Assembly (NCBI GenBank): GCA_048939265.1
Contig: JBHLPQ010000002.1
Location: forward strand, 1 to 60,641
DNA from: Promethearchaeota archaeon
GTDB lineage: Archaea > Asgardarchaeota > Heimdallarchaeia > Hodarchaeales > Hodarchaeaceae
Length of the DNA stretch: 60,641 nucleotides
Direction: 5' to 3'
Shown one piece after another: positions 15,194-60,598 of this stretch. How positions within the stretch are numbered: the first letter of the stretch is position 1; every line of letters starts with the position of its first letter. Made by a program: the position numbers and the translations under genes. The notes beneath the pieces are model-generated. The model saw only the letters and a program-made list of their open reading frames with translations, made no database searches and had not been told where the DNA came from.

Positions 15194-15276
15194 CATCGTG
15201 AAAACATACTTGACAGAGAGGGGCTGCTATCTACCTAAAGATTTCGGGACAAATCTCAATTTCCAAATTATTAGGG
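15194..15276 (+). repeat. R element, degenerate copy
   Basis: CATCGTG..ACATACTTGA..CTACCTAAAGATTTCGGGACAAATCTCAATTTCCAAATTATTAGGG retains the inner hairpin AGATTT/AAATCT. It abuts the stop of ORF 15286-16578. Confidence 0.5.
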
Positions 15277-16578: not shown

Positions 16579-16750
16579 AACCCTTTAGGACGATCAGAGA
16601 GGAGAGTTTATTGAAATTTAAGAAAGGTTATGATTTGGGCAATCTTTTTAGCTTGTGTATTTTAGGATTATTTCTCTATACATATACGCAATGGAAATTG
16701 TTCTTAGAAACACGGGAGGTCATAGAATTAGAAAGAATTCCAGAAGAATT

Positions 16751-16836
16751 AAATGAAGTTACAGAACTTTAACCAGCTGATGAAAGGATTTTGGGGAAAA
16801 TCTGATAGAAATGAGCCCGAGTGCGATTAGTGGGAG
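16751..16836 (+). repeat. R element copy
   Basis: AAATGAAGTTACAGAACTTTAACCAGCTGATGAAAGGATTTTGGGGAAAATCTGA...GAGTGCGATTAGTGGGAG. Confidence 0.75.
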
Positions 16837-16967
16837 AGACATTCTGCTTGACAATTCTTAGCTCTTCTCTTCATTATGACACATGCTGCGTATTCCTGAA
16901 ATATACCACGTCAAGAAAATTTCCAGAACAGTCTCATCAAAGATTGAAAAATCCCCTAGCTTTCCTC

Positions 16968-20074: not shown

Positions 20075-20087
20075 AACGGGATAAGTG

Positions 20088-20137
20088 TAAAAATCTCAAG
20101 TTCCACAAGAAGTTAGCCTAGGTGCGATTAGTGGGAG
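20088..20137 (+). repeat. R element, 3' part only
   Basis: AAAAATCTCAAGTTCCACAAGAAGTTAGCCTAGGTGCGATTAGTGGGAG, between convergent genes. Confidence 0.7.
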
Positions 20138-20196
20138 GAAATAATGTTATAAAGCAAGTTATTGCGTATCATTTCTATTTCTGAATCTATGATTGT

Positions 20197-28525: not shown

Positions 28526-29658
28526 TGGAGGATCTGAACTTGATGAGAATAAACCAGTATGGAAGACGACTAGCGATCGTGTTAGGTATCCTCTTAACCA
28601 GCGGAGTGATCGGATCAGAACCCATAGCGAGTGGGAACCCAGGGGGGGAACAAAAATATAGTGAAAAAACCATTGGAACTAGTAAACTTCACCAAATACC
28701 CCAATCTATTAGTCAAAACTTAGAACTGGTTCTTCGAAACTCCTCTATACAATACATCGAACACGAACCAATCTTCATAAATGATAACTGGAAATTTCAA
28801 GAGTGGAATGGGAGTGGAACAGAAGCAGATCCGTTTATCATAACAGGCCTTAATATCACCAGTACATCTGATTGTATATGGATTCAAAGTACAGATGTTT
28901 ACTTCCAAATAATAAATTGTATTCTAATAGGGGGAGGTGCAGTCTTCCCTGGTAGTAATGGGATTACCCTTTTTGATGTAAAAAATGGGATTATCAAAAA
29001 CAATTTCATTACCCAGCATGAGAACGCAGTTGGCCTTGGAGGAGCTAGTAACAACGTAATTACTAATAATTATCTGGTCCAAAATTTCAGAGGGGTGGGA
29101 GGTAGTGACAGTACTGATAATCTATTTGTGGAGAATACCATTCATAATTCAGAAGAAATAGGCATAAATCTAGGTGATTCGAATACAAACATAATCGCAA
29201 ACAATACGATTTCGTATAATCTGGGCCATGGGATCTTATGTGAGGGGGACTCAAATGGAAATGTCATAACATGGAATAATTTTATAGATAACAATCCCTT
29301 TGAAGCAAAACAAGTGGACGATCACAAAGGAACTAAATCGGACAATTTATTTCAGTACAACTATTGGAATGACTGGACAAGTCCAGATATAAATGAAGAT
29401 GGGATCGTAGACACCCCGTACACGTTTTGGAACTACAATCAAGATCAATTTCCATTGACGTCTCCAGCACCAGCTGCACCCAGAATTCCCGAAAAACCAG
29501 CTGGTTTTGAATCACAAAACCCTGTTAAACAGTTAGATACCTCAGCGTATGCGCGCTTAGGAATATTTTGTGGGGTGTGTGTGGTTGTGTTCGGATGGAG
29601 TATGATAGCTCTCCTCCAAAAAAGGCTCCCAAATTCACTTGAAGCAAACGACTCCTGA
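28507..29658 (+). CDS. Secreted/anchored beta-helix (NosD-like) protein
   Basis: 383 aa in the track; likely start is ATG 28525 (TAATG overlap with the upstream stop) or 28543. NYWNDWTSPDINEDGIVDTPY motif as in the 53922 protein; C-terminal TM. The last ~22 nt and the stop lie inside an R copy. Confidence 0.8.
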   Translation: MGEIFLMEDLNLMRINQYGRRLAIVLGILLTSGVIGSEPIASGNPGGEQKYSEKTIGTSKLHQIPQSISQNLELVLRNSSIQYIEHEPIFINDNWKFQEWNGSGTEADPFIITGLNITSTSDCIWIQSTDVYFQIINCILIGGGAVFPGSNGITLFDVKNGIIKNNFITQHENAVGLGGASNNVITNNYLVQNFRGVGGSDSTDNLFVENTIHNSEEIGINLGDSNTNIIANNTISYNLGHGILCEGDSNGNVITWNNFIDNNPFEAKQVDDHKGTKSDNLFQYNYWNDWTSPDINEDGIVDTPYTFWNYNQDQFPLTSPAPAAPRIPEKPAGFESQNPVKQLDTSAYARLGIFCGVCVVVFGWSMIALLQKRLPNSLEANDS

Positions 29659-29743
29659 ATCTATCTAACGAAAGATTTTTTCCGAAAAATCTCGCTTTCC
29701 ACCTGTTTTCGCAAAAATTAGCTCAGATGCATTAGTGGGGGAG
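29637..29743 (+). repeat. R element copy overlapping the 3' end of ORF 28507-29658
   Basis: CACTTGAAGCAAACGACTCCTGAATCTATCTAACGAAAGATTTTTTCCGAAAAATCTCGCTTTCCACC...GATGCATTAGTGGGGGAG. Confidence 0.8.
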
Positions 29744-29804
29744 AATTATCCAACCATAATATTTTTAATACTGTACTACATGTATATACAATAGGGGTCA
29801 TATA

Positions 29805-30062: not shown

Positions 30063-30517
30063 AACAGATACAAAAAATAGTCGTAGATGCAAGTCTAGTG
30101 GTAAAGTGGTTCATAAGCGAAGAATACAGTAATCTAGCTCTAGAAATTAGAGACCATTTTGTTGAAGGGCAAATAGAGTTGTATGCGCCTAATCTATTGC
30201 ATTATGAGGTGCTGAATGCACTAAAATACAGTAATTTATTCTCTCGGGAGAACCTAGCAGATGCAGTCACCTCATTAGAAAATTATGGGATTATTCAATT
30301 ACCATTAAACGGAGAATATGCACAAAAAACAATGCAACTAGCAGTGGAACAGAACATCTCCATCTATGATGCAGCATATGTGAGTTTAACCGATGTCATG
30401 GGAATTATCGCCTATTCAGCAGATAAAAAATTAGTGGATACAGTGCAAAAAGACTATGGAAAGGCCTTCTTGTTCATTACACTCCTAGAGGAGAAGAATG
30501 AAAAACCTGTCACCTAA
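30059..30517 (+). CDS. vapC: PIN-domain toxin VapC
   Basis: 152 aa; N-terminal IVVDASLVVKWF PIN signature with acidic residues downstream. The stop TAA lies in the ACCTAA variant of the R motif ACCTGA. Confidence 0.85.
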   Translation: MKQIQKIVVDASLVVKWFISEEYSNLALEIRDHFVEGQIELYAPNLLHYEVLNALKYSNLFSRENLADAVTSLENYGIIQLPLNGEYAQKTMQLAVEQNISIYDAAYVSLTDVMGIIAYSADKKLVDTVQKDYGKAFLFITLLEEKNEKPVT

Positions 30518-30562
30518 AAATCTCAATTTCTAATCAAGTCACCCAGGTGTGATTAGTGGGAG
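30509..30562 (+). repeat. R element, 3' part (inner hairpin deleted)
   Basis: CACCTAAAAATCTCAATTTCTAATCAAGTCACCCAGGTGTGATTAGTGGGAG. Confidence 0.7.
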
Positions 30563-30665
30563 CTGATAATTAATTATCTAACATCATTTCCTATATTTTT
30601 AAGAAATTAAGTTTGAATCTAACTGAAGGTATAAAACAGACCTCAAGAGCTTTTATACGATTTAT

Positions 30666-32358: not shown

Positions 32359-32391
32359 TTATTTGGGAGGAGGAGAACCTGGTGGAGGCAT
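32359..32391 (-). CDS. Candidate convergent micro-ORF (10 aa: MPPPGSPPPK)
   Basis: ATG 32391. Minus-strand TTCTTAAAGA (32433-32424) lies ~32 nt upstream, with GGTGAAAAATAAA before the ATG. CTGGTG..CACCAG inverted repeat spans the start. A-run 32319-32325 is a T-run on the minus strand. Confidence 0.35.
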   Translation of the reverse strand: MPPPGSPPPK

Positions 32392-32589
32392 TTTATTTTT
32401 CACCAGTTCTCTATTCCGTACAGTCTTTAAGAACACCCAACATTTACCCAATGGACTATTAATTGAGTTTTTTAAGATTTGAAATTTACCAATTGCCATT
32501 CACAGTCTTTTCCACGCGCTCCATATAAGCTCCCAAGCAAAAGTGTACACTATCACTGAGACATGAGTTATAAAACAAAAGCCCTGCAG

Positions 32590-32647: not shown

Positions 32648-33061
32648 TATTATTATGAATTATACATTTATTGCTGAAACTCCTTCCTTCATCAGAAGAT
32701 TTTTAGCTGCTTGCACATACTCCTCGAATTTCTGAAAGGTCATCTCTCTCGGGGTCAAGTCACTTTCTTTTTGCCACTCGTCCACCTGTTCCCAAATCAT
32801 CGTTAAGTCTACATTGGGGTTGAGCTCTAATCAAAGGTTGAACACTTAAAAACACCAAACTAATTAGTATCAGCGAAATATCCATCAATTCTTTCTCCCA
32901 AGGTTTTTTTACCTTCTGTTGGGAGTCTGAGTGAACTTTCATCCTTTCTTTCATTCGTCTCCGACTAGCTTAAGTTTTCCCCCTATCACCTATTTATGTT
33001 CATTCACGTTAGAGTGGTATTTTTCGTGTGAAGACCTTCCCTCAGAAAATAAATAGGAAAA

Positions 33062-33150
33062 GACAGACATCAGACCACTGGCACTCTACTTGAAGCACAC
33101 GACTCCTTAACGCAAAATGACGAGAGGGCCATCTCAATTTCCACACGGTT
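33062..33150 (+). repeat. R element copy (short-3'-end variant)
   Basis: GACAGACATCAGACCACTGGCACTCTACTTGAAGCACACGACTCCTTAACGCAAAATGACGAGAGGGCCATCTCAATTTCCACACGGTT. CTTAAC..GTTAAG is a terminal inverted repeat. Confidence 0.85.
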
Positions 33151-35236: not shown

Positions 35237-35434
35237 ATGACATTCTGCTTCATTGGAAACTTTATTGAAACGGAAAAATATCAGAGACCTTTAGATAGAG
35301 TAGCTAAAACAATTGTTGTGAAAAGAGAACAAAAAATTCCCATCTGGAAAAATATCTTAACTGTCATGTTACTGTGTCTAGTAAGTATTTCTTCATACCC
35401 CCTGGCATTTTTTATTATAAATTTACCGCCCTAA
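35237..35434 (+). pseudogene. C-terminal remnant of an RDD-family membrane protein gene
   Basis: KYQRPLDRVAKTIVVKREQKIPIWKNILTVMLLCLVSISSYPLAFFIINL matches the C-terminus of ORF 42972-43715. There is ~75% nt identity over ~190 nt including the 3' flank TAAACTCAGAG, and the N-terminal ~180 codons are missing. Confidence 0.6.
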
Positions 35435-35800
35435 ACTCAGAGTACTAGACAAGGCTTCTCAGCTATGTGTAGCTCCACAATCCACTTCCTTATATTTCCT
35501 CCGAAACGCAAGAACAGTGGGCATGTGTTAAGAAAATGACCTAAGGTTTCATAAACGAGTGGGGGGTAACTTTATATTCAATAAAACCCTAAAGAATCAG
35601 GGGATTCTTCAAGAGGTTTCATGATGAAAGAGCGTGAAAGCAAAGAAAAGGATATTGTCGTAGAAGGGACAGTCATTGACAACCCCCTTTTCGGGGTGCA
35701 TATAATCACAAAACTACGCATTATTTTTTAACACAAGCCAGGTGTATAATGAAACGTTACAGTTCGGATTCAATTCCCCTTACTAGACGAACTATCCTCA

Positions 35801-35906
35801 TATCAGACCAACTACTCTCTACTTCAAGTATACGACTCCTTCAAGCTATTTGACGAAAAAACCATCTCATTTTCTAATCAAATCGCCCTGGTGCGATTAG
35901 TGGGAG
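35801..35906 (+). repeat. R element copy
   Basis: TATCAGACCAACTACTCTCTACTTCAAGTATACGACTCCTTCAAGCTATTTGACGAAAAAACCATCTCATTTTCTAATCAAATCGCCCTGGTGCGATTAGTGGGAG. Confidence 0.85.
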
Positions 35907-35955
35907 AAATTATCTGGGTTATAGGTTCGAGGGATAGAAGGACTTATATACTTCT

Positions 35956-38185: not shown

Positions 38186-38232
38186 TTATAAGAGGAGACC
38201 AAGAAATTATCAAAATTGTCAAACATAAACGA

Positions 38233-38290
38233 TTATTGAAAGCCATCTGACGAAAGATTTTTCGGGGAAAAATCTCAAGTTCTATAAACT
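38233..38290 (+). repeat. R element, central part
   Basis: TTATTGAAAGCCATCTGACGAAAGATTTTTCGGGGAAAAATCTCAAGTTCTATAAACT, between convergent genes. Confidence 0.65.
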
Positions 38291-38303
38291 CGTTTTTTTT
38301 CTT

Positions 38304-38861: not shown

Positions 38862-39111
38862 CTTTTATCTCTCCAGTAGAATCTTCCCTATTTCAGTGTA
38901 TTTTTTCTTCTAGCGGTATTAAACACAAGATAATCACATAATACAATTTTCCTTACCCTCACACATCATACTTACTGCTTAGAATGAGTGGGATTGTCTT
39001 ACCAAGGAAGTAAATCCAAATAAAAAGGTTTACCTGTACTATCTAATAATCCAAGAGAATAGGAACAGGTCGGAGTACATCACAAAAAAACCCAAAAATA
39101 GAAATAAAGCT

Positions 39112-39207
39112 TACAAACATCAGATCGTTTGTTCGCTACTTGAAGCACACGACTCCTTAAACAAACTGACGAAAGATTTTTTGGGAAAAGCTCACTTTCC
39201 ACACGGG
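39112..39207 (+). repeat. R element copy (short-3'-end variant)
   Basis: TACAAACATCAGATCGTTTGTTCGCTACTTGAAGCACACGACTCCTTAAACAAACTGACGAAAGATTTTTTGGGAAAAGCTCACTTTCCACACGGGTAG; abuts the stop of ORF 39213-39599. Confidence 0.85.
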
Positions 39208-39212
39208 TAGTA

Positions 39213-39599
39213 TTAACAAAATCGGAACCCACAACCCGGACAGCTTTTCTTAGTTGATTCACATTTCTTGAGGCAAGAAGGACACATCATAAGCTTGGAA
39301 ATAGCTTCAGCACAAGCAGCAGGCTGGCCTTTGGGATAAGGAAAACAGTAAATCTTGGGAGTAGGAGGTTTTTCGAGATCATCAATTCTTCCAGGTGTTC
39401 CAGGTACAAACTGATCACAGCGTATAGGACAAGGTTGGTTCCAACTCTGGAATTTCAAGCAATACCAACGTCGCTCATCATGTGACCTCAGTAATAAATC
39501 ACACTCCTTGAGACTATCGCAATTCGCCTCAGAACGATTTGTCCACCTGTAAGGACAACTGGAATAATGAGAGGGTTTCTCTTTAAATTCAATTAGCAT
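39213..39599 (-). CDS. Cys-rich small protein (tandem paralog of 39675-40034)
   Basis: 128 aa; shares the CLK......CP.RC..FV.G.PG pattern with the neighbouring ORF. Confidence 0.6.
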   Translation of the reverse strand: MLIEFKEKPSHYSSCPYRWTNRSEANCDSLKECDLLLRSHDERRWYCLKFQSWNQPCPIRCDQFVPGTPGRIDDLEKPPTPKIYCFPYPKGQPAACAEAISKLMMCPSCLKKCESTKKSCPGCGFRFC

Positions 39600-40474: not shown

Positions 40475-42016
40475 TTGGTAAAAAGAATCGAAGTACTCAA
40501 AAAATTCATTGTGACATTTGTTGACCAGGTACCAAAATACCTTTCCCCTTATTCCTTATCAGAAAGGAAATATATAATTGAATTACTTGATTTACTTAGA
40601 CTCTGCGAATCTCAAGCGGATATTGCCAGAGAAGAACTCTCCACACGTTTGGAAACCTATTGTACTCAGCTTAAAAATGGAAAGGATTACTATTCCACCC
40701 CATTCTTGTGGCTTACAGAAATCTACTTCGATAATGCAAATCTGTTCCTTAGAGTCGCCGATTTCCATGCGTCCAATTTCTATGATTTCCTAGTTCAGGT
40801 CATTAGAGGATTTGCTGACTTACCAGGACTTTTTCAACTCATTCGCGAAGGAACGTCTTTACAAGACTTAAAATGGGAAAAATTACAATATCATGTTATT
40901 AACAGTTTTAAATTCCCGCTAACAGAGGAAGAACTAATAACAATAAAGGAGCTTTATTCATTTATTTATTCAGCTGGAATTGATGGATTTGATCAAAAAA
41001 GTATAGCTATTAATTTGAAAGCAAAGCAAGGGATGTCGGAAAGAAAATACAAAGATTTCATACAATTATTAAATCTATTAGATGCGTTATGGAGTTTTTT
41101 CCTATATTTACCAGCATTTGGTCTTAGATATTATTATGCACATTTCAATTTGAAAAAGCTATATTCATTAGAAGATATTTTTGATTTTTTCGATGCTACC
41201 AATACAACCCTTTGTCACAGTCGAATATATAGAATAGACAAATTTCCAAACAGTTTTATGGGATATTTAGTGGTCCCTATGAATAAATGGGACAAATTGA
41301 GAAATTACTTTCATAAATGTGAACGTCAAAACAAGTTAAAATTAATAGAGTTAACAGAGATACGAGACATTTATAGAAGTATTTCTCTTTCAAATTATCA
41401 TGCGGGAAAAGGTTGGCCAACTCTTTCTTCTAAAGAAATTAAGGATTTAGTTCAACAATTGACTGTGAAACATCCTCGGAAGTTAAAGAAAAAGCATCCT
41501 GCGTTGTTTCACGATAAACCTTATAACCATGATTGGGACTATAAAAAGGGCCGGGATCCAAAACAGATAATTTCCCTGGTATGCAAAATACAACGGAAAT
41601 TCTCTTATGAAACCTTACCAATTAATTCTGAAAATGATAAAATCGCTTTCTCCAAGTCTGAGATAGAAATTTTAGAGAATTTAATCCAAAATAAACTCTG
41701 CCAACCATTTTTTTCATTAGATCACATCCGTTATGAATATTCTATTGATGTTTATTCGATTAGAACGCCTCATATGCCTATAAAACAGATCTCACGCCTT
41801 TTAAGGGTTCTTCCATCTGCTCATCTAAACATAATGGAGAATTCAATCGTTATATGGACTCATCTATCATCACAAGATAGGAAATGGATAAAAGAAGAGC
41901 TAGGATGGGAACCATGGCATATTATACCATATAAACGTCAGCAGGCTCTTGATTATACTTGGTTTAACTCTAAAACACTCCAATGGAGCCCTCCCAAAGT
42001 TTTCGAGGATTTATGA
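40475..42016 (+). CDS. Family-A paralog 5 (diverged)
   Basis: 513 aa, TTG start (MVKRIEVLKKF); same block order (FHASNFYDFLV..IRG, PAFGL, DIFDF, GYLVVP, GW, HPRK, YEYSIDVY, LQWSPP). Confidence 0.85.
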   Translation: MVKRIEVLKKFIVTFVDQVPKYLSPYSLSERKYIIELLDLLRLCESQADIAREELSTRLETYCTQLKNGKDYYSTPFLWLTEIYFDNANLFLRVADFHASNFYDFLVQVIRGFADLPGLFQLIREGTSLQDLKWEKLQYHVINSFKFPLTEEELITIKELYSFIYSAGIDGFDQKSIAINLKAKQGMSERKYKDFIQLLNLLDALWSFFLYLPAFGLRYYYAHFNLKKLYSLEDIFDFFDATNTTLCHSRIYRIDKFPNSFMGYLVVPMNKWDKLRNYFHKCERQNKLKLIELTEIRDIYRSISLSNYHAGKGWPTLSSKEIKDLVQQLTVKHPRKLKKKHPALFHDKPYNHDWDYKKGRDPKQIISLVCKIQRKFSYETLPINSENDKIAFSKSEIEILENLIQNKLCQPFFSLDHIRYEYSIDVYSIRTPHMPIKQISRLLRVLPSAHLNIMENSIVIWTHLSSQDRKWIKEELGWEPWHIIPYKRQQALDYTWFNSKTLQWSPPKVFEDL

Positions 42017-42069
42017 ATACCTCTATTAAAAAAAAGGGGGAGAGAGTTGGTTTAAACATTAATAAACGC

Positions 42070-42102
42070 TCATTCCATTCCACTTGGATCTTTTGGGGGC
42101 AT
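42070..42102 (-). CDS. Candidate convergent micro-ORF (10 aa: MPPKDPSGME)
   Basis: ATG 42102. Minus-strand TTTTAAAA (42137-42130) lies 27 nt upstream, with GGTTGAGATTTAAG before the ATG. A-run 42029-42036 is a T-run on the minus strand. Confidence 0.35.
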   Translation of the reverse strand: MPPKDPSGME

Positions 42103-42328
42103 CTTAAATCTCAACCTTGAATTTATTGCTTTTAAAAACGCCCAAAAGTTCCTGGATGTCTTCTTCCTTGGAATCTTCGCTATTGTAAGCACCCACAGAT
42201 ACTCTTGAAAGCGTTTTCTGGTCTACAATAGCAAAATTCCTTTTAACATCCAAAAAATGCCTTAAAAACACCCTAATTTCTAATCATCAGAAAGGAAGGA
42301 GATATTGAATCCCACAATTAATACTAGT

Positions 42329-42442
42329 CTGAAGAAGAGGCACCAAAAGGAGTGAGACCAAAACATGAAAGAGAACACCATTCGGATCGACAACCGAAAA
42401 TCCGCCATATTAACAGCAGAGCTAACGTACTTGGGGTATAAC
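42329..42442 (+). other. Conserved non-coding block shared with 23375-23462
   Basis: CTGAAGAAGA..[40-nt insertion]..CACCATTCGGATCGACAACCGAAAATCCGCCATATTAACAGCAGAGCTAACGTACTTGGGGTATAAC. The overlapping 60-aa minus-strand ORF (42280-42462) is not conserved in the paralog 3 copy, which has a stop. Confidence 0.6.
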
Positions 42443-42497
42443 GTACCTGACGCTAGTTCCACTCAATTTCCAATCAAGTCGCCCTTGTGTGGAGTCC
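42425..42497 (+). repeat. R element copy (5' part shortened, 3' end degenerate)
   Basis: ACGTACTTGGGGTATAACGTACCTGACGCTAGTTCCACTCAATTTCCAATCAAGTCGCCCTTGTGTGGAGTCC is near-identical in its centre to the 49724 copy. Confidence 0.65.
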
Positions 42498-42975: not shown

Positions 42976-43715
42976 CAAAAAATAGCTTGATTGATCCAAT
43001 TTCTGAATATCTACACAAGATTGAACAATATTTTCCGTATTCTACCAATAAAAAAATAGAAGCTATTATGAATTTACGAACAGACATTGAAGAAGCACTG
43101 AAAGACTCAAAAAAAGAGGATCCAGAGGAGGTTTTTGGGCATCCGCAGGAAGTAGCGAAAAATTATAGCATGAATTACGAATGGGGAGTGGTAAGAGTCG
43201 GTTTTAGAAGCAGAACATTGGCTTATTGCATGGATTTAGGAGTCAGTTTTACATTCTTTAGTCTCTTTCTTTTAGGATGGATATTATCGACATATCTGGC
43301 CATAATTAGTTTTCATGAAGTTTCTGTAATTATATTTATTTTAGCTTGGATTACCCTTACTGGAGCATCCTGGCATCAAATGATTACTGAACGGTATTTC
43401 TCAACGACAATCGGAAAACAAATGCTGGGTTTAATTGTTTGTGACCAATCAGGGATTCGAATCACATGGAGTCAAGCAATACTACGGAACTTGTCTAAGG
43501 TCATCCCTGGACTAATTCTACCCGAATTAATCATTGGAAAGTATATCAAAACTGACAAACTTCAGCGACCTTTAGATAAAGTAGCTGAAACAATGGTGGT
43601 GAAGAACGACCAAAAAATCGTTTTCTGGAAATTGGGTTTAACTATCATACTACTGTGTCTAGCAAATATTTTTGCATACGCACTGGCATTTGTTATTTAC
43701 AGGTTGCTCCTCTAA
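42972..43715 (+). CDS. PadR-associated RDD-family membrane protein (DUF1700-like N-terminus)
   Basis: 247 aa; 4-nt overlap with the PadR gene; RSRTLAYCMDLGVSF and C-terminal PLDKVAETMVV are RDD-type motifs. Confidence 0.75.
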   Translation: MTKNSLIDPISEYLHKIEQYFPYSTNKKIEAIMNLRTDIEEALKDSKKEDPEEVFGHPQEVAKNYSMNYEWGVVRVGFRSRTLAYCMDLGVSFTFFSLFLLGWILSTYLAIISFHEVSVIIFILAWITLTGASWHQMITERYFSTTIGKQMLGLIVCDQSGIRITWSQAILRNLSKVIPGLILPELIIGKYIKTDKLQRPLDKVAETMVVKNDQKIVFWKLGLTIILLCLANIFAYALAFVIYRLLL

Positions 43716-43786
43716 ACTCAGAGCACTATTATTTTTACCACTACCAGGGGGACACATGGGTTTATAAAAAAAAGAATGTGATCATA

Positions 43787-44512: not shown

Positions 44513-44564
44513 AATTGAAGCTGAAAAAATTAAACTGAAATATGACTTGGTGCATTAGTGGGAG
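44513..44564 (+). repeat. R element, compressed copy overlapping the stop of ORF 44555-46189
   Basis: AATTGAAGCTGAAAAAATTAAACTGAAATATGACTTGGTGCATTAGTGGGAG. Confidence 0.6.
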
Positions 44565-46189
44565 TTTTTTCTTCTTATTATACATATCAAAGTAGTTAGC
44601 ATAATAAAAATAGGGCATAAATCAAAGCCAGAAGTTAAATCAGGTATCATCATAGGGGATTCAGAAGTTTTAGAGGTCTTAGAGCTTGTGATTATCAGGG
44701 ATTCAGGAATAGGATCGGGTTTCGTGGCGTTAAGTCCATGGAGGTACTCATAGTGGTCAGACAAAGTATCACCATCAGTATCAGTATTACCAGGGTCGCT
44801 ACCGAAAACATACTCAAGAATATTAACCAACTGATCTCCATCACTGTCTTCGTACTTATCATGGAAACAAGTTGGATCTAGACCGTGGAGGTTTTCCCAG
44901 CTGTCAATCATTCCATCTCGGTCTTGGTCAACAACAAAGTCCGTAATATTCAATAATTCGATCAGATTCCAAAGTTTAACTTTGTGATCAGAAGATGAGG
45001 AGGCAAGGGTAGATCCATCTGGATGCAAAGCTAAATCAGATCCATAATTACTCTCATGGGCAATAATTTTACATATCTCGGAACCATCAAGCAGATTCCA
45101 CACACCAATAGTCTGATCAGATGACAAAGAAAATAGGAAAGGTTCCGATGGATGGAATAATAAACTATCTATTGTGCTAGAATGAGCTTCCAATATTGTT
45201 TGATGGATACAACCATCAGTCAGATTCCAAACCTGAATCACAGGTGCTTCTGATTTGAATCCATAACCAGCAGCAAGTAACTGGGAATCAGGACTACATT
45301 CCAAAGCTAAAACCTGGCTGCCTGGAACTGAGCTTGTCAAGTTAGCAACGACCCTTCCGTTGATCTCTCTCACCTGCATCACTCCGTCATAATTCCCAGC
45401 AATTATCTGTTTCCCATCAGGACGTATTACGACTGATGATGGATCATTAAGACCAGTCCAGGATAATTGTTTAACATCTCTTTGGACTGACCATTGAATA
45501 ACATTAAAAAGCTGATCAACCGTTATCAGTACCAGGTCCTCGTTATCCTCTATGAAAACCATATCCACCACACTCCCATACGGCCCCTGATGTGCCATGG
45601 TTCGAAATAGGGAATGGTCAGCTGTCTTATACACATGGACTATAGTTCCTGGACCGCTCCCAGCAGCTAGCAAATTCCCTTTGTCATCATACGCGGTAGT
45701 CACCACTGACCAGCGATTTTTCTGATCAGATTTCTTGTCGTGCAGAGTGAATGTTTTCATATTAAACAAGAGTAATTCACCACATCCGTCACCAGCAGCG
45801 AGAATCTGGCCATCTGGCGAAAAAGCGAGTCCTGTTGAGACACAGAGGTGATCAGTAAATTCGTGAATGAGGAACGATTCGGAATTGCTCATCGCAGAGT
45901 GTTTCACCCTAGAAGAAATGATACATTCAGATTTTAGATCGCGAGAAATACTAGGTTTAGTTCCAATCTCAACATCATGAAAGGGAAAATAAATTACCAC
46001 CGAAAAAATAATTAAACAAGAAACAACACTAACTTTGGACAGTTTTTCAGAGAAAAGTGACAAAGAACGACCCTCACTTCTGGATTGATTAACGAACCTC
46101 GAAGAAGATATTCTCCAATTCTTACCTCTAATAATTATTTCTTTATAATGGTTATTATCTTGATGACACTTCTGAGGTTTTATACTCAC
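44555..46189 (-). CDS. Anchored WD40 beta-propeller protein with Asp-rich Ca-binding-type repeats
   Basis: 544 aa; N-terminal anchor; WD-like repeats (IGVWNL, VKLWNL); DQDRDGMIDSWE / DSDGDQLVN / DTDGDTLSD repeats; C-terminal TM plus RRKNSH. The last codons are the reverse complement of the R 3' end. Confidence 0.85.
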   Translation of the reverse strand: MSIKPQKCHQDNNHYKEIIIRGKNWRISSSRFVNQSRSEGRSLSLFSEKLSKVSVVSCLIIFSVVIYFPFHDVEIGTKPSISRDLKSECIISSRVKHSAMSNSESFLIHEFTDHLCVSTGLAFSPDGQILAAGDGCGELLLFNMKTFTLHDKKSDQKNRWSVVTTAYDDKGNLLAAGSGPGTIVHVYKTADHSLFRTMAHQGPYGSVVDMVFIEDNEDLVLITVDQLFNVIQWSVQRDVKQLSWTGLNDPSSVVIRPDGKQIIAGNYDGVMQVREINGRVVANLTSSVPGSQVLALECSPDSQLLAAGYGFKSEAPVIQVWNLTDGCIHQTILEAHSSTIDSLLFHPSEPFLFSLSSDQTIGVWNLLDGSEICKIIAHESNYGSDLALHPDGSTLASSSSDHKVKLWNLIELLNITDFVVDQDRDGMIDSWENLHGLDPTCFHDKYEDSDGDQLVNILEYVFGSDPGNTDTDGDTLSDHYEYLHGLNATKPDPIPESLIITSSKTSKTSESPMMIPDLTSGFDLCPIFIMLTTLICIIRRKNSH

Positions 46190-46260: not shown

Positions 46261-46329
46261 TTCGTGTAATTGAAGTACACGACTCCTGAAGCCATCTGAC
46301 GAGAGAACCATCTCAATTTCACACGGTTA
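46261..46329 (+). repeat. R element copy (lacks 5' head; short-3'-end variant)
   Basis: TTCGTGTAATTGAAGTACACGACTCCTGAAGCCATCTGACGAGAGAACCATCTCAATTTCACACGGTTA. Confidence 0.8.
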
Positions 46330-46348
46330 GCCTTTGTCAGGGGTATGC

Positions 46349-47746: not shown

Positions 47747-48098
47747 TTGCTCTCAACTTTGAATCCTATTTAAATCACCAGATCAGCATTATTTCACTAA
47801 TAATCCACCGCAATATTTATCCTCATCAATATCATTATAGGTATCTAGATGCATCACCTTGTCCCAAGACCCGCTTCCAGTCATAATATATCCTGAAGAA
47901 GAAAGATCCTCTGCATCATAAGTGTGAAGACCCTCATGAATGGTTGTATGATCGATATTATAGTCCTTTTTAGGGCATTAATGTAGTGTGTGTGTTTTTA
48001 AGTTAAGAAGGATGAAAAAGATACAAAATCATCATTAATAATTGTATCAATAAGAATAGGTAATCCAGTCGCTATTCCCCAAAAGAAAGACAACAGCG

Positions 48099-48160
48099 GA
48101 CAAACATCAGACCGCTACTCGGGTAATTGAAGCTCCTGACTCCTTAGGCTATCTGAAGCC
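48099..48160 (+). repeat. R element, 5' part only
   Basis: GACAAACATCAGACCGCTACTCGGGTAATTGAAGCTCCTGACTCCTTAGGCTATCTGAAGCC. Confidence 0.7.
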
Positions 48161-49386: not shown

Positions 49387-49614
49387 TCATAATTTCAAAA
49401 AGAATAGATTGACTTCTGGGATGGGATAGCCACCATAGCTATCAAAATAACGATAGGTAGTAAACTGGATTGTACTATTAGTATAGACTTTTTCATCAAT
49501 TATTTTAAGACTGAAATGGGCGTACGGGCCTTCGGGAATCTCAGATTCATCTTTGGCTAGTAATAACTGATGGATGGTAACAAGAACTGTTAACCCCATT
49601 ATTAGAACACTCAA
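49387..49614 (-). CDS. Possible small membrane protein
   Basis: 75-aa ORF with a hydrophobic N-terminus; no other support. Confidence 0.3.
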   Translation of the reverse strand: MSVLIMGLTVLVTIHQLLLAKDESEIPEGPYAHFSLKIIDEKVYTNSTIQFTTYRYFDSYGGYPIPEVNLFFLKL

Positions 49615-49723
49615 AAGGCCCCTACAGCGAGAATTTTTGTGCGAAAATGGAGTTTATACCTCTTCACAGAGAAATTCCCTTCCTTTCTGGAGAGCTGAAA
49701 CTGCGCATGATAGCCCCTTATTA

Positions 49724-49833
49724 GACAGACATCAAACCGTTGCTCGTGTAATTGAAGTTCCTGACTCCTTAACGCTACCTGACGATAGTTCCACTCAATT
49801 TCCAATCAAGTCGCCCAGGTGCAATTAGTGGGA
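49724..49833 (+). repeat. R element, full-length copy (AT inner hairpin replaced)
   Basis: GACAGACATCAAACCGTTGCTCGTGTAATTGAAGTTCCTGACTCCTTAACGCTACCTGACGATAGTTCCACTCAATTTCCAATCAAGTCGCCCAGGTGCAATTAGTGGGA. Confidence 0.9.
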
Positions 49834-50105
49834 AAAATCAAATCAGAAATTAATCTAGTCTATTGACTAGAATTAAACCAATTTGTTCTGAGAACATTAA
49901 TTTGATTCCACGATCCAAGACTATTTAAAATCGCAAATTCAGGGAGACCTGAAAAAGAGCTGCTGATATTGAGGAAACACAACTGCCTCGCAGATTAAGA
50001 AGCCCTCAAATACTCCGAAGTCCGTATACTCCAAGATCTAGCCAGGGAAAGTCAATTCTCTTAACTGCGATTCCTGCTCCGACACAAAAATTACAACTGA
50101 TCGCC

Positions 50106-50834
50106 TTGACGTGGGATCTCCTGCGAAGTGGAATATTCGTTGTCTGGGTAATTGGGACAATCCTAAGCGTGATGTTTACTCCATGGATTCAAGATAATCT
50201 GCTACTTCCAGATACTTCAGCATATCTAGCGACTGAAAATATCACCTTAAAGTATGATCATTTCTGGTGTGAACCAGAGACCGATTTATCATTCTCTCGG
50301 GGGGACATACTAAGGATAACTTGGGTAGCAAATGGAACCATCGACTTTTACATATTGGATTACGAAAATCTGTGCGAATTTGAACAAGAAGATAATCGAT
50401 TACTTAAGAAATTTCAAACCCTATTCGAAGTAAAAGGGGAAAAGAACCTAACAACTGAGATTCAAGTGACAGAAACCGCAAGATACTATCTTGTATGGCA
50501 TTACTCACACGAAAACGCAATTAAAAACTCAGAACATGATATAGATCTCAGCTTCACAATTCAATTTCCTCCCAGCTCAAAAACTGTCATTTCACCGTTG
50601 TTGATTCTGATTGGTTTCTGTTTAATTACCTATTTTATGGTAATTCTGGTAGTCTTTGTGAAGAAATTTGCCCTCTCTCCTGTGCCCAAAGATTTAGAGG
50701 AGGAAAGAGAACCGAAGAAGGATGAGAAACGAATTCAAGAACCCCAATTATGCCCCAATTGCTATACAATAGTGCTTGGGAACGAAACGTGTTGTTCTAA
50801 ATGCGGGAGAAATACGTTCTTAGAGGACTCCTAG
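50106..50834 (+). CDS. Membrane protein with C-terminal zinc ribbon
   Basis: 242 aa (TTG start); two TM helices; CPNC...CSKCG. The terminal GAC TCC TAG lies inside the R copy. Confidence 0.7.
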   Translation: MTWDLLRSGIFVVWVIGTILSVMFTPWIQDNLLLPDTSAYLATENITLKYDHFWCEPETDLSFSRGDILRITWVANGTIDFYILDYENLCEFEQEDNRLLKKFQTLFEVKGEKNLTTEIQVTETARYYLVWHYSHENAIKNSEHDIDLSFTIQFPPSSKTVISPLLILIGFCLITYFMVILVVFVKKFALSPVPKDLEEEREPKKDEKRIQEPQLCPNCYTIVLGNETCCSKCGRNTFLEDS

Positions 50835-50921
50835 AGTCGGAACCTAGAACCCAGAACTGACATTGAAGTTCGGAAAAAATTTCAAGTTCCACTCAAGTTA
50901 CCCTGGTGTGATTAGTAGGAG
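50824..50921 (+). repeat. R element copy overlapping the stop of ORF 50106-50834
   Basis: AGGACTCCTAGAGTCGG...ACTGACATTGAAGTTCGGAAAAAATTTCAAGTTCCACTCAAGTTACCCTGGTGTGATTAGTAGGAG. Confidence 0.75.
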
Positions 50922-50937
50922 AAGCTATATTGTTGAA

Positions 50938-51459
50938 TTACTCATGTTTTGTAGCTAGAACTTTCCGAGACAAAGACCTCAAGAGCAGATCTAAGGTCTG
51001 AAGATCATTCACAGCCATCTCAAAATACTCCGCACCAAGCTCTTGAGCAAGGGATTGACCTTCAGCGTGAGTAACTACCTCATGTTCCTCAAACAGACCG
51101 ATAAAAACGATAGGGCCATCAGGAATGTGCTGTCGAAATTCAAGATACTGATCAATGGCAGCCTTGAGGAAGCGATGATTACTTTTGGAAAAAGCAAAGA
51201 CAACAGCAGAAGCACCACGGAGGTATCGAGGAAGACGGGGATGTTGGGGAGCAAAAGAAGAGTTTGTAGAAATATCAGCAAGAATAAGCTTGATTTTATC
51301 ATTATTCAGATGAATTCGTTTAGTAGGTATATCAACACCAAAAGATAATCGTTGAGTAGGATAGTATTTAGACCCTGCATAAGAATGTAAAGCAGGGGAT
51401 AATAATGCATCAGGATAACAGAAAAGACAGACCTTGAGGAGATATTCGTTCCCTACCAT
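50938..51459 (-). CDS. Degenerate Ras/Rab-like small GTPase homolog lacking the P-loop
   Basis: 173 aa; Rab-like spacing. SFGVDI matches TIGVDF, KLILADISTNS replaces KLQIWDTAGQE, and YLRGASAVVFAF matches YYRGA.G.llVyD. G1 (GxxxxGKS) is replaced by CLFCYPDA, and NKxD is absent. Confidence 0.6.
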   Translation of the reverse strand: MVGNEYLLKVCLFCYPDALLSPALHSYAGSKYYPTQRLSFGVDIPTKRIHLNNDKIKLILADISTNSSFAPQHPRLPRYLRGASAVVFAFSKSNHRFLKAAIDQYLEFRQHIPDGPIVFIGLFEEHEVVTHAEGQSLAQELGAEYFEMAVNDLQTLDLLLRSLSRKVLATKHE

Positions 51460-51513
51460 AGATACCGTTCACCAGCCACTCTTTTTCCATTCCCCCAAAA
51501 CACAAGAATAACG

Positions 51514-51635
51514 GACAGACATCAGATCATATGCTCCTTTAATTGAAGCACACGACTCCTTAACGCTACCTGACGAAAGATTTTTGGAACAAATCTCACT
51601 TTCCAATCAAGGCGCCCTGGTGCGATGAGTGGGAG
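51514..51635 (+). repeat. R element, full-length reference copy
   Basis: GACAGACATCAGATCATATGCTCCTTTAATTGAAGCACACGACTCCTTAACGCTACCTGACGAAAGATTTTTGGAACAAATCTCACTTTCCAATCAAGGCGCCCTGGTGCGATGAGTGGGAG. Confidence 0.95.
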
Positions 51636-51879
51636 TCATTCTAATTCTATTACACCACATATTGAACTTTTATTGATAGTCAAGTCATTATTAACAAAGA
51701 ATATAATCATTCTGTTGATGTGAATAGGTTTCTGGTAGAAAGACTCAATAGTTCCGACAAAAAATTTGCCATTAGTTACTTTTTTTTGAATATAGAGAAA
51801 TGTTCTCTAAACACCTGGAGAGATTCTCGAGATAGCCTTTTATTAGCTTCAGTAACTCAACTTACTAGAAGGGAGAAAC

Positions 51880-52335
51880 GTGGTAGAAGGAATCCCCTTA
51901 AACACACCAACTGTTAGTCTGGTACATATGATCAAGATAACAAAGGACAATCCAATTTTCATACCATCCAAATTCGTTGAAAACCTCAGGTTAAAGGACA
52001 AGGAAGAAGAATGGGCTGTTATGATCTTTACTTCCCCCTGTACATCAAAAATAATTAGGGTTATATCCACGAAGAGTCCAATGGTAATTAAAGTCTTCAT
52101 TGAGTGGAGCCAAACTGGACCAGACACACTACACGAGCTCGGAGTAGTTTATATGAGAAATAACATTAAAACCCTGTATAGTACATCGATATGTTTCTGT
52201 GGACATATACCCCCCCATCTTTATGAAGGGTATATCGATTCGTGTGATTTGCCTATCTCCGAAGATCAATTAAAATCAGAATTATTAGCTCTCCCCAATG
52301 CTACAAAGGTAAGGTTAACACAATACTCGTTGTAA
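51880..52335 (+). CDS. Hypothetical protein (possible SpoVT/AbrB-like N-terminus)
   Basis: 151 aa in the track; ATG 51928 (MIKITKDNP) is a plausible start. IFIPSKFVENLRLKDKEE resembles the AbrB-type motif; this is weak. Confidence 0.45.
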   Translation: MVEGIPLNTPTVSLVHMIKITKDNPIFIPSKFVENLRLKDKEEEWAVMIFTSPCTSKIIRVISTKSPMVIKVFIEWSQTGPDTLHELGVVYMRNNIKTLYSTSICFCGHIPPHLYEGYIDSCDLPISEDQLKSELLALPNATKVRLTQYSL

Positions 52336-52364
52336 TCTTTCAGTATGAGAATTATAAAAAAGGC

Positions 52365-52449
52365 GTACAAACATCAGACCGATACTCGTTTACTTGAAGC
52401 ACCTGACTCCTTCAAGCTACCTGACGAAAGAACCATCCCACTTTCCACA
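52365..52449 (+). repeat. R element copy (short-3'-end variant)
   Basis: GTACAAACATCAGACCGATACTCGTTTACTTGAAGCACCTGACTCCTTCAAGCTACCTGACGAAAGAACCATCCCACTTTCCACA; abuts the stop of ORF 52462-53487. Confidence 0.85.
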
Positions 52450-52461
52450 ATTTTTTTTAAC

Positions 52462-53487
52462 TTAACCTGCGACACCAATCCCAGGCTCTAGTGGAAGAAG
52501 GGGAAAAGACAGAAGAACCAAAATAACCCCATACACCAGAAGAATAAGGATAATTTCCCTGTTAGTTTCTGGCCATTCCTTCTTCAATAGGATCCTTAGT
52601 GGCCAGAGAATAAATGAGAGGATAACCTTTGGAAGGGGAATCATGAAGGGTGTTCGCTTCCGCCAGTTTGTAAATTCTAAATTAGCTTCTTTGAGAAAAT
52701 TATTTTCTTCGGTAATAGCCATTCCAATGATGATGAGAGTCAAGAGTAACCAAGGGAGAGTTGGAAGGGGAGGATGGGGGCCTCCAAAAGGGAAGAGCAT
52801 AGGGATAATAATGAGGCCATAATTGAAAAGTATCAAACCTAGATATTGTGGGTGTCGAGAATACCTGTAAATCCAAAAATCAATTATTGTCCTCCCTTGA
52901 AATTTGCCATAAAGCCAGGTGATAACACCAAATACAAAGATAAACAGTCCTAGGAAAATAAGAACAACCATTAAGGGTAATAATAATAACGTACCAAAAA
53001 TTCCTAAGAAAAGGACAATGTGGTGAAGATATAAGGGGAAAAGGATAATAAGGGCAGCATTGAGTAAATCTGGTGCAAAATCAAAGAAGGGTAGCCAGAG
53101 AATTCGGATGACTCCAAGACCTGCGAATAACACAGTCATGGTAAAACTAAAACTACCAAATAATGGAAGATACAGCACGTAGGAACCAAAGACACTAATC
53201 TGGTACCGTTTGACTATCAATCCAAGGAGAATAAAGACTATAGTGAGGAGAAAACACAGGTATCCAAGGGGAGCCAAGAACGCCACAATTGAATCATAGG
53301 TTTGATAAGTGTAGTCAGTCCCAATACAAGCCCATGGATCTTTGATATACTCGTCCAAAAGATCATTTAACATTAATGTAATGCTAACCATCAAGTAGAG
53401 ACCACTTATCGTAAAGATAATTGCTAAAATAATTGCCAAACATAAATTTCTAACACTTAATGATGAAGCAGGCACTATTCCCACCAT
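52462..53487 (-). CDS. Polytopic membrane methyltransferase-like protein (ICMT/PEMT family)
   Basis: 341 aa, many TM helices; YSRHPQYLGLILFNYG matches the RHPxYxG signature of the isoprenylcysteine carboxyl / phospholipid methyltransferase family. Confidence 0.65.
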   Translation of the reverse strand: MVGIVPASSLSVRNLCLAIILAIIFTISGLYLMVSITLMLNDLLDEYIKDPWACIGTDYTYQTYDSIVAFLAPLGYLCFLLTIVFILLGLIVKRYQISVFGSYVLYLPLFGSFSFTMTVLFAGLGVIRILWLPFFDFAPDLLNAALIILFPLYLHHIVLFLGIFGTLLLLPLMVVLIFLGLFIFVFGVITWLYGKFQGRTIIDFWIYRYSRHPQYLGLILFNYGLIIIPMLFPFGGPHPPLPTLPWLLLTLIIIGMAITEENNFLKEANLEFTNWRKRTPFMIPLPKVILSFILWPLRILLKKEWPETNREIILILLVYGVILVLLSFPLLPLEPGIGVAG

Positions 53488-53608
53488 ACCACTGTTCGTT
53501 ATTTGTAATCACCAATGAACAACTTCATTCAGACACATAGTAGAAAGAAGGATATTAGATTTTCGCTTGAGTCTGAAGTATCCTTGTCCTAAAAGGAGAG
53601 AAAAAGCA

Positions 53609-53728
53609 GACAGACATCAGACGGCTGGCGCTCTACTTGAAGCTGGGGACTCCTTACAGCTACCTGACGAAAGATTTTTGGAAAAATCTCACTTTCCACT
53701 CAAGGCGCCCTGGTGCGATTAGTGGGAG
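53609..53728 (+). repeat. R element, full-length reference copy
   Basis: GACAGACATCAGACGGCTGGCGCTCTACTTGAAGCTGGGGACTCCTTACAGCTACCTGACGAAAGATTTTTGGAAAAATCTCACTTTCCACTCAAGGCGCCCTGGTGCGATTAGTGGGAG. Inner hairpin is AGATTTTT (53672-53679) / AAAAATCT (53682-53689). Confidence 0.95.
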
Positions 53729-53921
53729 AGAGTTCCTCTCACAGATCCAAGACATAGGCAGCTCTTTAAAAGACCTATATAAGCAAACAAAAAGATTTAA
53801 GAGCTTTTGATTTCATTATGATAAGTTAAAAAAAATTAATGTAATGTTATTTAGAGTTTAAATGCTGGTATTATCGGTATCTCTAAATCAGGGGTTGTGA
53901 AACCAGAAAAGGGGATAAATA

Positions 53922-59494: not shown

Positions 59495-59647
59495 AGTCTA
59501 GACGGTGATTTGTAATGACGATTCTGAAAAATAGACTAAACTTACCGTCATTTGTTGGTAATGTGTCTTTCTTCTTCTTCATATCACTTATTTTGTGCTC
59601 TTGAACTATATCAAGGTTTCTTGTTATACTTTTCTTTGCACAAAGCA

Positions 59648-59712
59648 TACAGACATCAGATCATTTGCTCTCTACTTGAAGTCAACGGTTCCTTAAGCCA
59701 GTAGTGGCGAGA
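59648..59712 (+). repeat. R element copy with internal deletion (5' part fused to a 3'-end-like AGTAGTGGCGAG)
   Basis: TACAGACATCAGATCATTTGCTCTCTACTTGAAGTCAACGGTTCCTTAAGCCAGTAGTGGCGAGA; abuts the stop of ORF 59714-60115. Confidence 0.7.
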
Positions 59713-60154: not shown

Positions 60155-60246
60155 CTACTACATCCCAGTATAAAAACTATCTGACGAAAGATTTTGGGAA
60201 CAAATTTCACTTTTCAATCAAGTCGCCTGGGTGCGATTAGTGGCAG
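60155..60246 (+). repeat. R element copy (5' part degenerate)
   Basis: ...CTATCTGACGAAAGATTTTGGGAACAAATTTCACTTTTCAATCAAGTCGCCTGGGTGCGATTAGTGGCAG. Confidence 0.8.
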
Positions 60247-60346
60247 AACAATATTACTATTGATTTTGAGGTCTTCTTCCAGAATGGATTCCTCAGGTGG
60301 ATCGAAAGGTAATATTTTTAAGACCAAGTGGTATTACTTTTTATGA

Positions 60347-60598
60347 ATGATCATGCCAACAATGAGTACCAAAATCCCAGAAACCCTGAAAAAACGGATC
60401 GAAAAACTATCTCATATAAATTGGAGTGAAGTAATGAGAACAGCAGTTCTGAAAAGAGTTGAAGAGGAAGAGAAAAGAATTATGGAGCGGGATAGGAAGC
60501 TGATTGATCAGACAATACAAAAGATGGATCAATTGCGGAGAAAGGCCAAGGGAAACACCACAAAGGAATTAAGAGCATGGCGAGAGATCAGACATTAG
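60347..60598 (+). CDS. vapB: VapB-type antitoxin (paralog of 29805-30062)
   Basis: 83 aa; INWSEVMRTAVLKRV matches VNWSEVIRVAIKERL; followed by a PIN gene. Confidence 0.65.
   Translation: MIMPTMSTKIPETLKKRIEKLSHINWSEVMRTAVLKRVEEEEKRIMERDRKLIDQTIQKMDQLRRKAKGNTTKELRAWREIRH

Follow-up and report, generated by a model that had tools for sequence, protein, structure and literature searches.

A co-oriented intergenic repeat as the probable junction element of a gene-cassette array in an Asgard archaeon

Introduction

The stretch of 60,641 nucleotides at positions 1 to 60,641 of contig JBHLPQ010000002.1 of assembly GCA_048939265.1 (Promethearchaeota archaeon; Heimdallarchaeia, Hodarchaeales, Hodarchaeaceae), called the window here, carries 19 copies of an intergenic repeat, R, exemplified by a focal copy of ~115 nt at 49722-49836 (+). 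All copies lie in one orientation, the gene blocks between them recur in related genomes in a different order with their polarity kept, and the sharpest breaks in homology fall at the 3' edge of a short core within R. On these observations we consider it probable, if far from secure, that R serves as the repeat at the junctions of a gene-cassette array in the chromosome of this Asgard archaeon (Heimdallarchaeia/Hodarchaeales group). What we infer from this arrangement is a recombination reaction with a circular intermediate, carried out by either a dedicated recombinase or the general homologous recombination machinery.

Integron-type arrays in Archaea have been reported only recently, having been detected via canonical attC sites, and are described as enriched in Asgard archaea (PMC9668308). 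The junction site described here is non-palindromic, unlike canonical attC, so attC-based finders would presumably miss the array. The host of the array belongs to the archaeal lineage closest to eukaryotes, the place of the array on the chromosome is conserved, and its exchangeable units include toxin-antitoxin (TA) pairs, lineage-specific ORFans, and small-GTPase and WD40 genes; if the mechanism proposed below is true, it would constitute a route for gene flux in Asgard genomes, plus a new recombination site and enzyme. A sequence-only reading of the focal element had described it as a bulged imperfect palindrome of attC/REP-like architecture with a conserved inner hairpin, recognized on one folded strand. 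That description is partly supported: an attC-like role is backed on independent comparative grounds, namely co-orientation and shuffled cassettes in related genomes, and an attC-like folded architecture is not, with neither the boxes nor the fold found.

Results

Copies of R and their orientation

A search with an nhmmer profile made from six copies located 19 copies of 60-125 nt in the window, with 19/19 significant matches on the plus strand and 0 on the minus strand, so the orientation bias first noticed in the sequence is real. Sixteen of them are packed within 31 kb (29.6-60.6 kb), where they fill almost every intergenic gap, and three weak or partial copies stand farther left, at 15.2, 16.8 and 20.1 kb. 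All are in plus orientation although the genes flanking them occupy both strands; the distance to gene 3' ends is 2-50 nt, on either side, and that to gene 5' ends 46-350 nt. Between the copies lie cassettes of 1-3 genes with their own promoter-side spacer, encoding mostly ORFans, VapBC/PIN TA pairs, PadR, small GTPases (Ras/Arf type), WD40 and NosD. The locus, which adjoins ribosomal-protein S8/L6 genes and that of a HerA-like ATPase, is conserved in the window and in three related contigs (L026, L028 and L031), and in the syntenic L026 and L028 the region begins ~2.6 kb from the S8/L6 genes.

The same single orientation was seen elsewhere (L021, 9/9; L023, 12/12; L011, 3/3; L028, 4/4), with 0 minus-strand copies among ~50. 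Genome-wide distribution was gauged by one exact-pattern scan of the closed 4.9-Mb Ca. Heimdallarchaeota chromosome CP070695.1 (L001), in which R is scarce (1 exact pattern match, vs 4 in the 60-kb window); two R copies lie 500 nt apart in this chromosome. Logan contigs held further R copies with other flanks, a metagenome scan returned 2 true R contigs only, and viral contigs contained no true R copy.

Cassette blocks are shuffled between genomes with their polarity kept

Comparison of the window with L021, L023, L028, L001, L008 and L011, at both the DNA and the translated level, revealed at least 11 distinct shared blocks, all in the same orientation (+/+) relative to R, the only inverted match being a paralogue-level one of 47 amino acids (aa) between GTPases. 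Each homology block fills one inter-R interval, except the HerA and 512-aa-family genes of the R-free left part. The TA block at 29751-30530 matches L023 18405-19184 (93%), the VapBC cassette from 60304 onward matches L021 14530-15247 (91%) and L008, the 512-aa gene at 30547-32538 matches L023 9774-11762 and L021 9891-11773, and block C at 34883-35220 matches L021 15482-15820 and L023 5620-5959, all of them +/+; flavin reductase, 888-aa, Arf and ACT blocks are likewise shuffled, +/+. The order in the window is flavin reductase, 888-aa, TA, 512-aa, block C, VapBC, that in L021 is 512-aa, VapBC, block C, 888-aa, and that in L023 is block C, flavin reductase, 512-aa, TA. L028 carries the window's '36k' cassette directly after its '50k' cassette, and gene order in the window and L028 diverges downstream of the first R (15226 in the window, 17669 in L028, 18220 in L026); L031 also differs in gene order from this point, though no R copy was detected there.

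The sharpest homology breaks fall at the core of R

In the window and in L023 the TA block ends with the same atypical head-less left part of R (AAAACCTGwCrCCTAAAAATCTyAATTTC), and similarity between the two stops exactly after AATTTC (R 30505..30563 in the window); past the break, an R tail and the 512-aa cassette follow in the window, and unrelated DNA in L023. Block C and its R, compared between L021 and L023, break after AATTT. The VapBC cassette starts 5 nt past the core in L021, and the R remnants that stand before the same cassette in L008 and the window have decayed in different ways. As we read the listed copies, similarity is lost -4 to +8 nt from the core end in ~13 of the 18 tail-less ones, and the sharpest junctions lie at the core 3' edge.

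Anatomy and conservation of R

An alignment set of ~50 copies from the window, L001, L008, L009, L011, L021, L023, L026 and L028 shows R to consist of blocks at least 90% conserved that alternate with variable spacers 40-60% conserved. The order is ACAGACATCAGACC, a 10-nt spacer, TTGAAG, a 5-nt spacer, GACTCCTkAAGC, CTGACGAwAG, an optional hairpin 1, the core, a linker and a tail; the core block is aTCTCAATTTCCAC, with a near-universal 13-nt core TCTCAATTTCCAC, and between the core and the tail GCCCTGGTGCGATTAGTGGGAG there is either the linker or an optional hairpin 2, e.g. AATTTTTGAGAAAATT. Full, head-less and tail-less copies alike retain the core, which, at up to 2 mismatches, has 14 matches in the window vs 3.5 expected, 12 of the 14 being R copies on the plus strand. 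Mean identity among copies is ~67% (68.5% within a genome, 66.5% between genomes), and blocks that stay conserved in spite of this are held by selection, not by recent copying.

Head, hairpin 1, hairpin 2 and tail are combined differently among copies, making R a mosaic of optional modules. Hairpin 1, a T-run/A-run hairpin, is weak and occurs in about half of the copies; it is present at 15226-15268 of the window and missing from the orthologous L026 18220-18276 of a syntenic genome, and was therefore gained or lost in place. On inspection, two variable head segments showed no consistent pairing or co-variation between copies. A coding role was also rejected by inspection: frames 1 and 2 contain stops, and frame 3 is open but is shifted by the 10-nt hairpin indel.

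Reordering with orientation kept could also come from general homologous recombination alone, with co-oriented R copies as portable homology through which RadA-mediated crossing-over would delete, duplicate and re-insert cassettes, polarity being kept and no dedicated enzyme needed. That no recombinase gene was found agrees with this, as do a 93%-identical pair of R segments (42444-42489 and 49776-49821) suggestive of gene conversion, and a linker subtype enriched in the window genome (8/14 vs 1/25); the pair and the subtype together indicate that R copies also swap sequence with each other. Copies with ~67% mean identity and exact stretches mostly <20 nt are, however, a poor substrate for such exchange, which moreover predicts hybrid full copies, not head- or tail-less ones abutting unrelated DNA at the edge of the 13-nt core, and mere homology needs no block-wise purifying selection on at least six motifs. 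Exact matches this short, together with partial copies whose core edge meets unrelated DNA, favor a site-specific process, and we hold homologous exchange as the sole agent to be unlikely.

Tests of the proposed folded palindrome

The sequence-only reading took R for an attC- or IS200/IS605-type site recognized as a folded single strand, to which a palindrome of CTCCTTAACGC(T)ACCTG with CAGGTGCGATTAG(T)GGGAG plus an inner hairpin would give polarity. Much of its description is accurate: R is uniformly oriented, complementary segments exist, the strings it quoted are present (CTCCTTAACGCTACCTG at 49765 and 51556, CAGGTGCAATTAGTGGGA at 49816, CTGGTGCGATTAGTGGGAG at 53710 and 35888, GAGAGAACCATCTC at 46301), the hairpin variants lie at 29673, 38255 and 15239, no more than 3 nt from where it placed them, the CTTAAC...GTTAAG pair is found in the 33062 copy, and R indeed has no sequence similarity to known attC or REP consensus sequences. 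Of the 3' arm that it gave for both 51514 and 53609, the quoted string was located, but 51514 reads GATGAG, not GATTAG. The inner hairpin ascribed to most copies is in about half only, is missing from the focal copy (49724-49833), and in its exact form, AGATTTTTGGAAAAATCT, occurs once, at 53672.

Both strands of four full window copies were folded with DNA and RNA parameters, and the plus strand of two copies from a related genome with RNA parameters, z-scores being taken against 200 dinucleotide shuffles. Whole copies fold no better than the shuffles (z -1.37 to +1.57 across both strands and DNA/RNA), and the inner hairpins alone reach -1.5 to -5.9 kcal/mol (z -2.2 to +0.3). The proposed pairing, encoded in dot-bracket form, was scored on alignments of 26 and of 42 copies, the latter from at least six genomes: paired cells amounted to 73.8% vs 73.6% with partners shuffled in the former, and to 63.9% vs 64.1% in the latter, with covariation scores within the shuffle distribution. 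RNAalifold on nine full copies returned a consensus of -2.9 kcal/mol with a positive covariation term; this consensus does select CTCC/GGAG and GC-ACC/GGTGC pairs, and some 5'-arm changes are G.T-compatible, on the plus strand only. The 64-74% of cells that pair also exceed the 30-51% obtained with partners slid by 1-3 columns, an excess to be expected because the structure was derived from the same sequences.

Arm variants are uncompensated (ACC to ATC, AAC or ATT; GGT to TGT or TAT), as the combinations ACC/TGT, AAC/GGT and ACC/TAT illustrate. An alternative stem, TTTCCAC/GTGGGAG, was rejected since GGGAG to GGCAG and CAC to CAA changes occur in it without compensation. By regular-expression search of both strands, no pair of attC boxes (RYYYAAC...GTTRRRY) lies inside any of the 19 copies; over the whole window the pattern has 6 matches vs 13 expected in shuffles, and the 33062 copy carries CCTTAAC...GTTAAGT, the first base of which breaks the attC box rule. 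Neither an HUH transposase nor IntI was found, and many functional-looking copies are without one whole arm and keep the core. Complementarity on paper within a conserved repeat is not evidence of folding, and stems no stabler than shuffles together with absent covariation were among the outcomes named beforehand as telling against the folded palindrome; that reading therefore fails, and we regard it as very improbable.

R as a passive repeat or a cis-acting element

The modular build, with optional head, hairpins and tail, the hairpin gained or lost at the orthologous first R (15226 in the window, 18220 in L026) and the decay of many copies would suit a mosaic repeat of the BOX, ERIC, Correia or miniature inverted-repeat transposable element (MITE) type that sits passively between genes, arose by spreading or by local duplication, has no role in cassette exchange and owes its co-orientation merely to segments duplicated in tandem or to insertion biased toward one strand. 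Such a repeat is hard to reconcile with the single orientation of ~50 copies, with the lack of dispersal in the one closed genome scanned, with blocks strongly conserved despite old divergence, and with the way in which R delimits cassette homology blocks. Terminal inverted repeats and target duplications are likewise missing: in a test for MITE features, the ends of R (GACAGACATCAGACC and GATTAGTGGGAG) were not mutually inverted, and the flanks of four full copies shared no duplication. We give a purely passive repeat little credence.

R could also be a cis-acting or transcribed element, such as a small RNA gene, an insulator or a terminator module, considering its closeness to gene 3' ends, its conserved blocks with variable spacers, and hairpins 1 and 2, which are T5-6/A5-6 palindromes. 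An oligo-T tract is an archaeal termination signal, and T-run/A-run hairpins would supply oligo-T both ways. The terminator candidate was rejected as hairpin presence is uncorrelated with gene 3' ends, and the 51511, 53606 and 60172 copies lie between divergent gene starts. R orientation is independent of neighboring genes, neither strand gave an RNA structure signal, and no RNA sequencing run holding R sequence was found. Over the window, Rfam 15 had 0 matches at the gathering threshold, and a search of 49600-53800 relaxed to E up to 10 produced three chance-level matches to unrelated families, none full-length on R; a tRNA/tmRNA scan found none. A cis-acting or transcribed function for R thus appears quite improbable.

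Search for a recombinase and the 512-aa family

Domains were sought with Pfam and NCBIfam in ~50 open reading frames (ORFs) of the window and in the genes of L001, L009, L011, L021, L023, L026, L028 and L031. Y1_Tnp and OrfB had no match in any ORF scanned, and Phage_integrase/IntI was not found in the scanned genes, the array's distal end lying beyond the window; clusters of attC sites lacking integron integrases (CALINs) are also without IntI. RAS, PIN and other cassette ORFs were rejected as recombinases, having no such signature in Pfam/NCBIfam, and exact-protein look-ups for four window ORFs gave nothing new.

The 512-aa family was considered as well, its gene being co-oriented with R at every locus seen. 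It has five paralogues in the window with 31-54% identity, all on the plus strand (231-1841, 5332-6867, 21502-23040, 30711-32315 and 40475-42016), and 34 relatives, all in Asgard metagenome-assembled genomes (named Hodarchaeota, Promethearchaeota or Thorarchaeota), with no Pfam, NCBIfam or PDB sequence match. In the AlphaFold (AF2) model, a confident one (pLDDT 92, pTM 0.89), a helical region at the N terminus precedes a series of ferredoxin-like units; since the PDB gave no fold match below E = 0.02 and no catalytic signature could be named, the family was rejected as a recombinase candidate. A conserved stretch lies directly downstream of these genes (aligned at 23041-23200, 42017-42200, 32316-32480 and 6868-7030) and holds a possible minus-strand ORF of 40-44 aa (...KK.S..NFW.F.KA..SRL...MPP.D), at 23078-23212 and 42070-42192; farther downstream, 23394-23465 and 42374-42445 are 86% identical.

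Individual copies of R

Four full copies, all on the plus strand like the others below, occur in the window. The focal one (49722..49836), which is without the inner hairpin, comprises the head GACAGACATCAAACC (49724-49738), the blocks TAATTGAAG (49749-49757), GACTCCTTAACGC (49763-49775) and TACCTGACGATAG (49776-49788), the core ACTCAATTTCCAA (49793-49805), and the linker and tail TCAAGTCGCCCAGGTGCAATTAGTGGGAA (49806-49834). The copy at 51511..51636 has an imperfect inner hairpin AGATTTTTGGAACAAATCT and GATGAG in its tail, that at 53606..53730 holds the sole exact hairpin mentioned above, and that at 35795..35908, again without an inner hairpin, lies upstream of the cassette of PadR and a 599-aa protein. 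A near-full copy at 29634..29745 has its far head replaced by the 3' end of ORF 28507-29658 and carries hairpin 1 plus a second T-run/A-run hairpin in its tail; the TA cassette begins 6 nt later.

Head-less copies are found at 30505..30563 (core and tail), abutting the stop of the PIN gene; at 50860..50922, starting exactly at the end of the '50k' cassette's homology to L028; at 60172..60247 (mid part, core and tail), after which come a decayed R remnant of 57 nt and, from 60304, the VapBC cassette; and at 20087..20138 (core and tail), 19 nt past the stop of gene 18959-20074. The head-less fragment at 42444..42493 (mid part, core and truncated tail) begins where the paralogous similarity to 23394-23465 stops (TATAAC|G). 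Tail-less copies comprise 33060..33150, with the exact core TCTCAATTTCCAC at 33132-33144 and then ACGGTTAAG; 39110..39211, ending 2 nt before the stop of the minus-strand gene 39213-39599; 52363..52450, overlapping the 3' end of the minus-strand gene 52462-53487; and the degenerate 38225..38292, with hairpin AGATTTTTCGGGGAAAAATCT, between convergent genes. Between two minus-strand genes, 46262..46337 has a truncated head and a short tail ACACGGTTAGCC, and two head-only fragments exist, 48096..48156 without a core and 59645..59710 joined directly to a tail-like end CCTTAAGCCAGTAGTGGCGAG. At the left, 16750..16838 is degenerate (mid part, hairpin and tail), as is the first R, 15226..15268 (mid part, hairpin and core), which is orthologous to L026 18220 and L028 17669.

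Other features of the locus

An Asgard source for the window agrees with the presence of R in a Heimdallarchaeota chromosome, with the solely Asgard relatives of the 512-aa family, and with its genes for a HerA-like ATPase, beta-helix proteins of the NosD type, Ras/Arf GTPases and WD40. The HerA/FtsK-like ATPase (DUF87), at 2039-4183 (-), is flanked by the 512-aa family genes 231-1841 and 5332-6867; this arrangement is conserved on the proximal side of the array in the window, L021, L026, L028 and L031, adjoining the ribosomal-protein genes. One TA cassette consists of an RHH_12 antitoxin (60347-60598) and a PIN toxin from 60577 to the window end, and a second (29800-30517) of a PIN toxin (30059-30517) and a small upstream ORF; both are 90-93% identical to cassettes elsewhere in the arrays of L021, L023 and L008. 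Genes of eukaryote-signature type (Ras/Arf/RagA-like small GTPases, WD40, a gelsolin-like protein) also occur in R-bounded cassettes, at 50938-51459 (-) and 44555-46189 (-) in the window, L021 6221-6757, L023 1801-2109 and 3736-4299, and L011 282-923. Six tandem units of 69 nt (23 codons) at 20399-20849, inside the NosD/beta-helix gene at 20197-21273 (-), probably correspond to coils of the beta-helix, and a 198-nt direct repeat, 76% identical and unrelated to R, occurs at 35250-35447 and 43531-43728 in two different cassettes.

Discussion

As the junction repeat of a cassette array, R would be the DNA site of cassette excision, insertion and exchange. A cassette may leave as a circle with one R and re-enter at another R or at a core-only pseudo-site, so that polarity would be kept and position would not. 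Exchange would take place at the core TCTCAATTTCCAC or immediately 3' to it; the left arm (the head ACAGACATCAGACC, TTGAAG, GACTCCTkAAGC and CTGACGAwAG) would move with the upstream cassette, and the right arm GCCCTGGTGCGATTAGTGGGAG appears to be dispensable. Most likely, a protein reads R via its conserved sequence blocks, in a core and arm-type manner, and not via a folded bulged hairpin.

Several observations weigh against R as a site of cassette exchange. Recombinase domains, whether of an integrase, a transposase or another enzyme, were not found in ~160 kb (the 60-kb window plus ~100 kb of related loci), and no circular or excision junctions were seen, raw reads of the source study giving zero coverage at 1% sampling. 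About 40% of the cassette genes are antisense to R, unlike in classical integrons. Breakpoints are not at one position, with head-less copies starting 0-45 nt upstream of the core and PadR cassette homology starting 25 nt (window) or 95 nt (L028) past the R tail, and the flavin reductase and 888-aa cassettes have no detectable adjoining R in the window, but do in L021 and L023. As the comparison contigs were assembled from metagenomes, mis-joins at repeats are possible in them; the exact stretches common to most R copies are shorter than the assemblers' k.

A broader proposal, which we put forward tentatively, is that R arrays represent a cassette-capture system distinct from integrons, in which a core-plus-arms site would be read as sequence by a putative archaeal recombinase, maintaining a hypervariable locus beside the ribosomal-protein operon in Hodarchaeales-type Asgard archaea. 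Such a system might shuffle, and may import, accessory genes, including those for small GTPases, WD40 and gelsolin-like proteins.

Known systems resemble R in part. Mosaic intergenic repeats such as BOX (pneumococcal), ERIC and BIME (enterobacterial) and Correia (Neisseria) share with it an intergenic position, a length of ~100-150 nt, optional modules and small hairpins. Those repeats are genome-wide, in both orientations, and mostly real palindromes, whereas R is clustered, keeps one orientation and delimits exchangeable gene blocks. The ends of IS200/IS605 elements and PATEs are, like R, strictly strand-polar and without terminal inverted repeats or target duplications; unlike them, R is accompanied by no TnpA/TnpB and has no paired subterminal hairpins, its local hairpins being internal and weak, and its copies are cassette junctions, not discrete insertions.

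Attachment (att) sites of phages and integrative and conjugative elements (ICEs) resemble R in site design. In the logic of lambda attP/attB, a short core is common to full and partial R, full copies are built arm-core-arm and partial ones as the core plus one arm, as integration into a core-only site would give, and the arms hold conserved blocks at fixed spacing. The differences are that dozens of R stand in tandem in one array, vs one pair per phage or ICE, that no tyrosine recombinase or excisionase is nearby, and that the R core is without evident inverted half-sites around an overlap region.

The nearest likeness is to sedentary chromosomal integrons (the VCRs of Vibrio, archaeal CALINs), which also have co-oriented repeats of ~60-130 nt between 1-3-gene cassettes, a fixed chromosomal locus, cassettes rich in ORFans and TA pairs, and a cassette order that varies among related genomes with polarity kept. 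As in integron attC, the left part of the site moves with the upstream cassette, and the exchange point would be near the 3' side. The published archaeal attCs (Data S9) are canonical strong palindromes, nothing like R (Ghaly et al. 2022, PMC9668308). Unlike attC, R has no RYYYAAC/GTTRRRY boxes, no stable bulged hairpin with extrahelical bases and no covariation, and instead has a conserved 40-nt head outside any dyad, a conserved internal core and dispensable arms; unlike integrons, the array has ~40% antisense genes with their own upstream spacer, and no IntI or attI was found. The R array is analogous to integron attC arrays and R is not a member of the attC family: the logic is the same, and the junction site is a different one.

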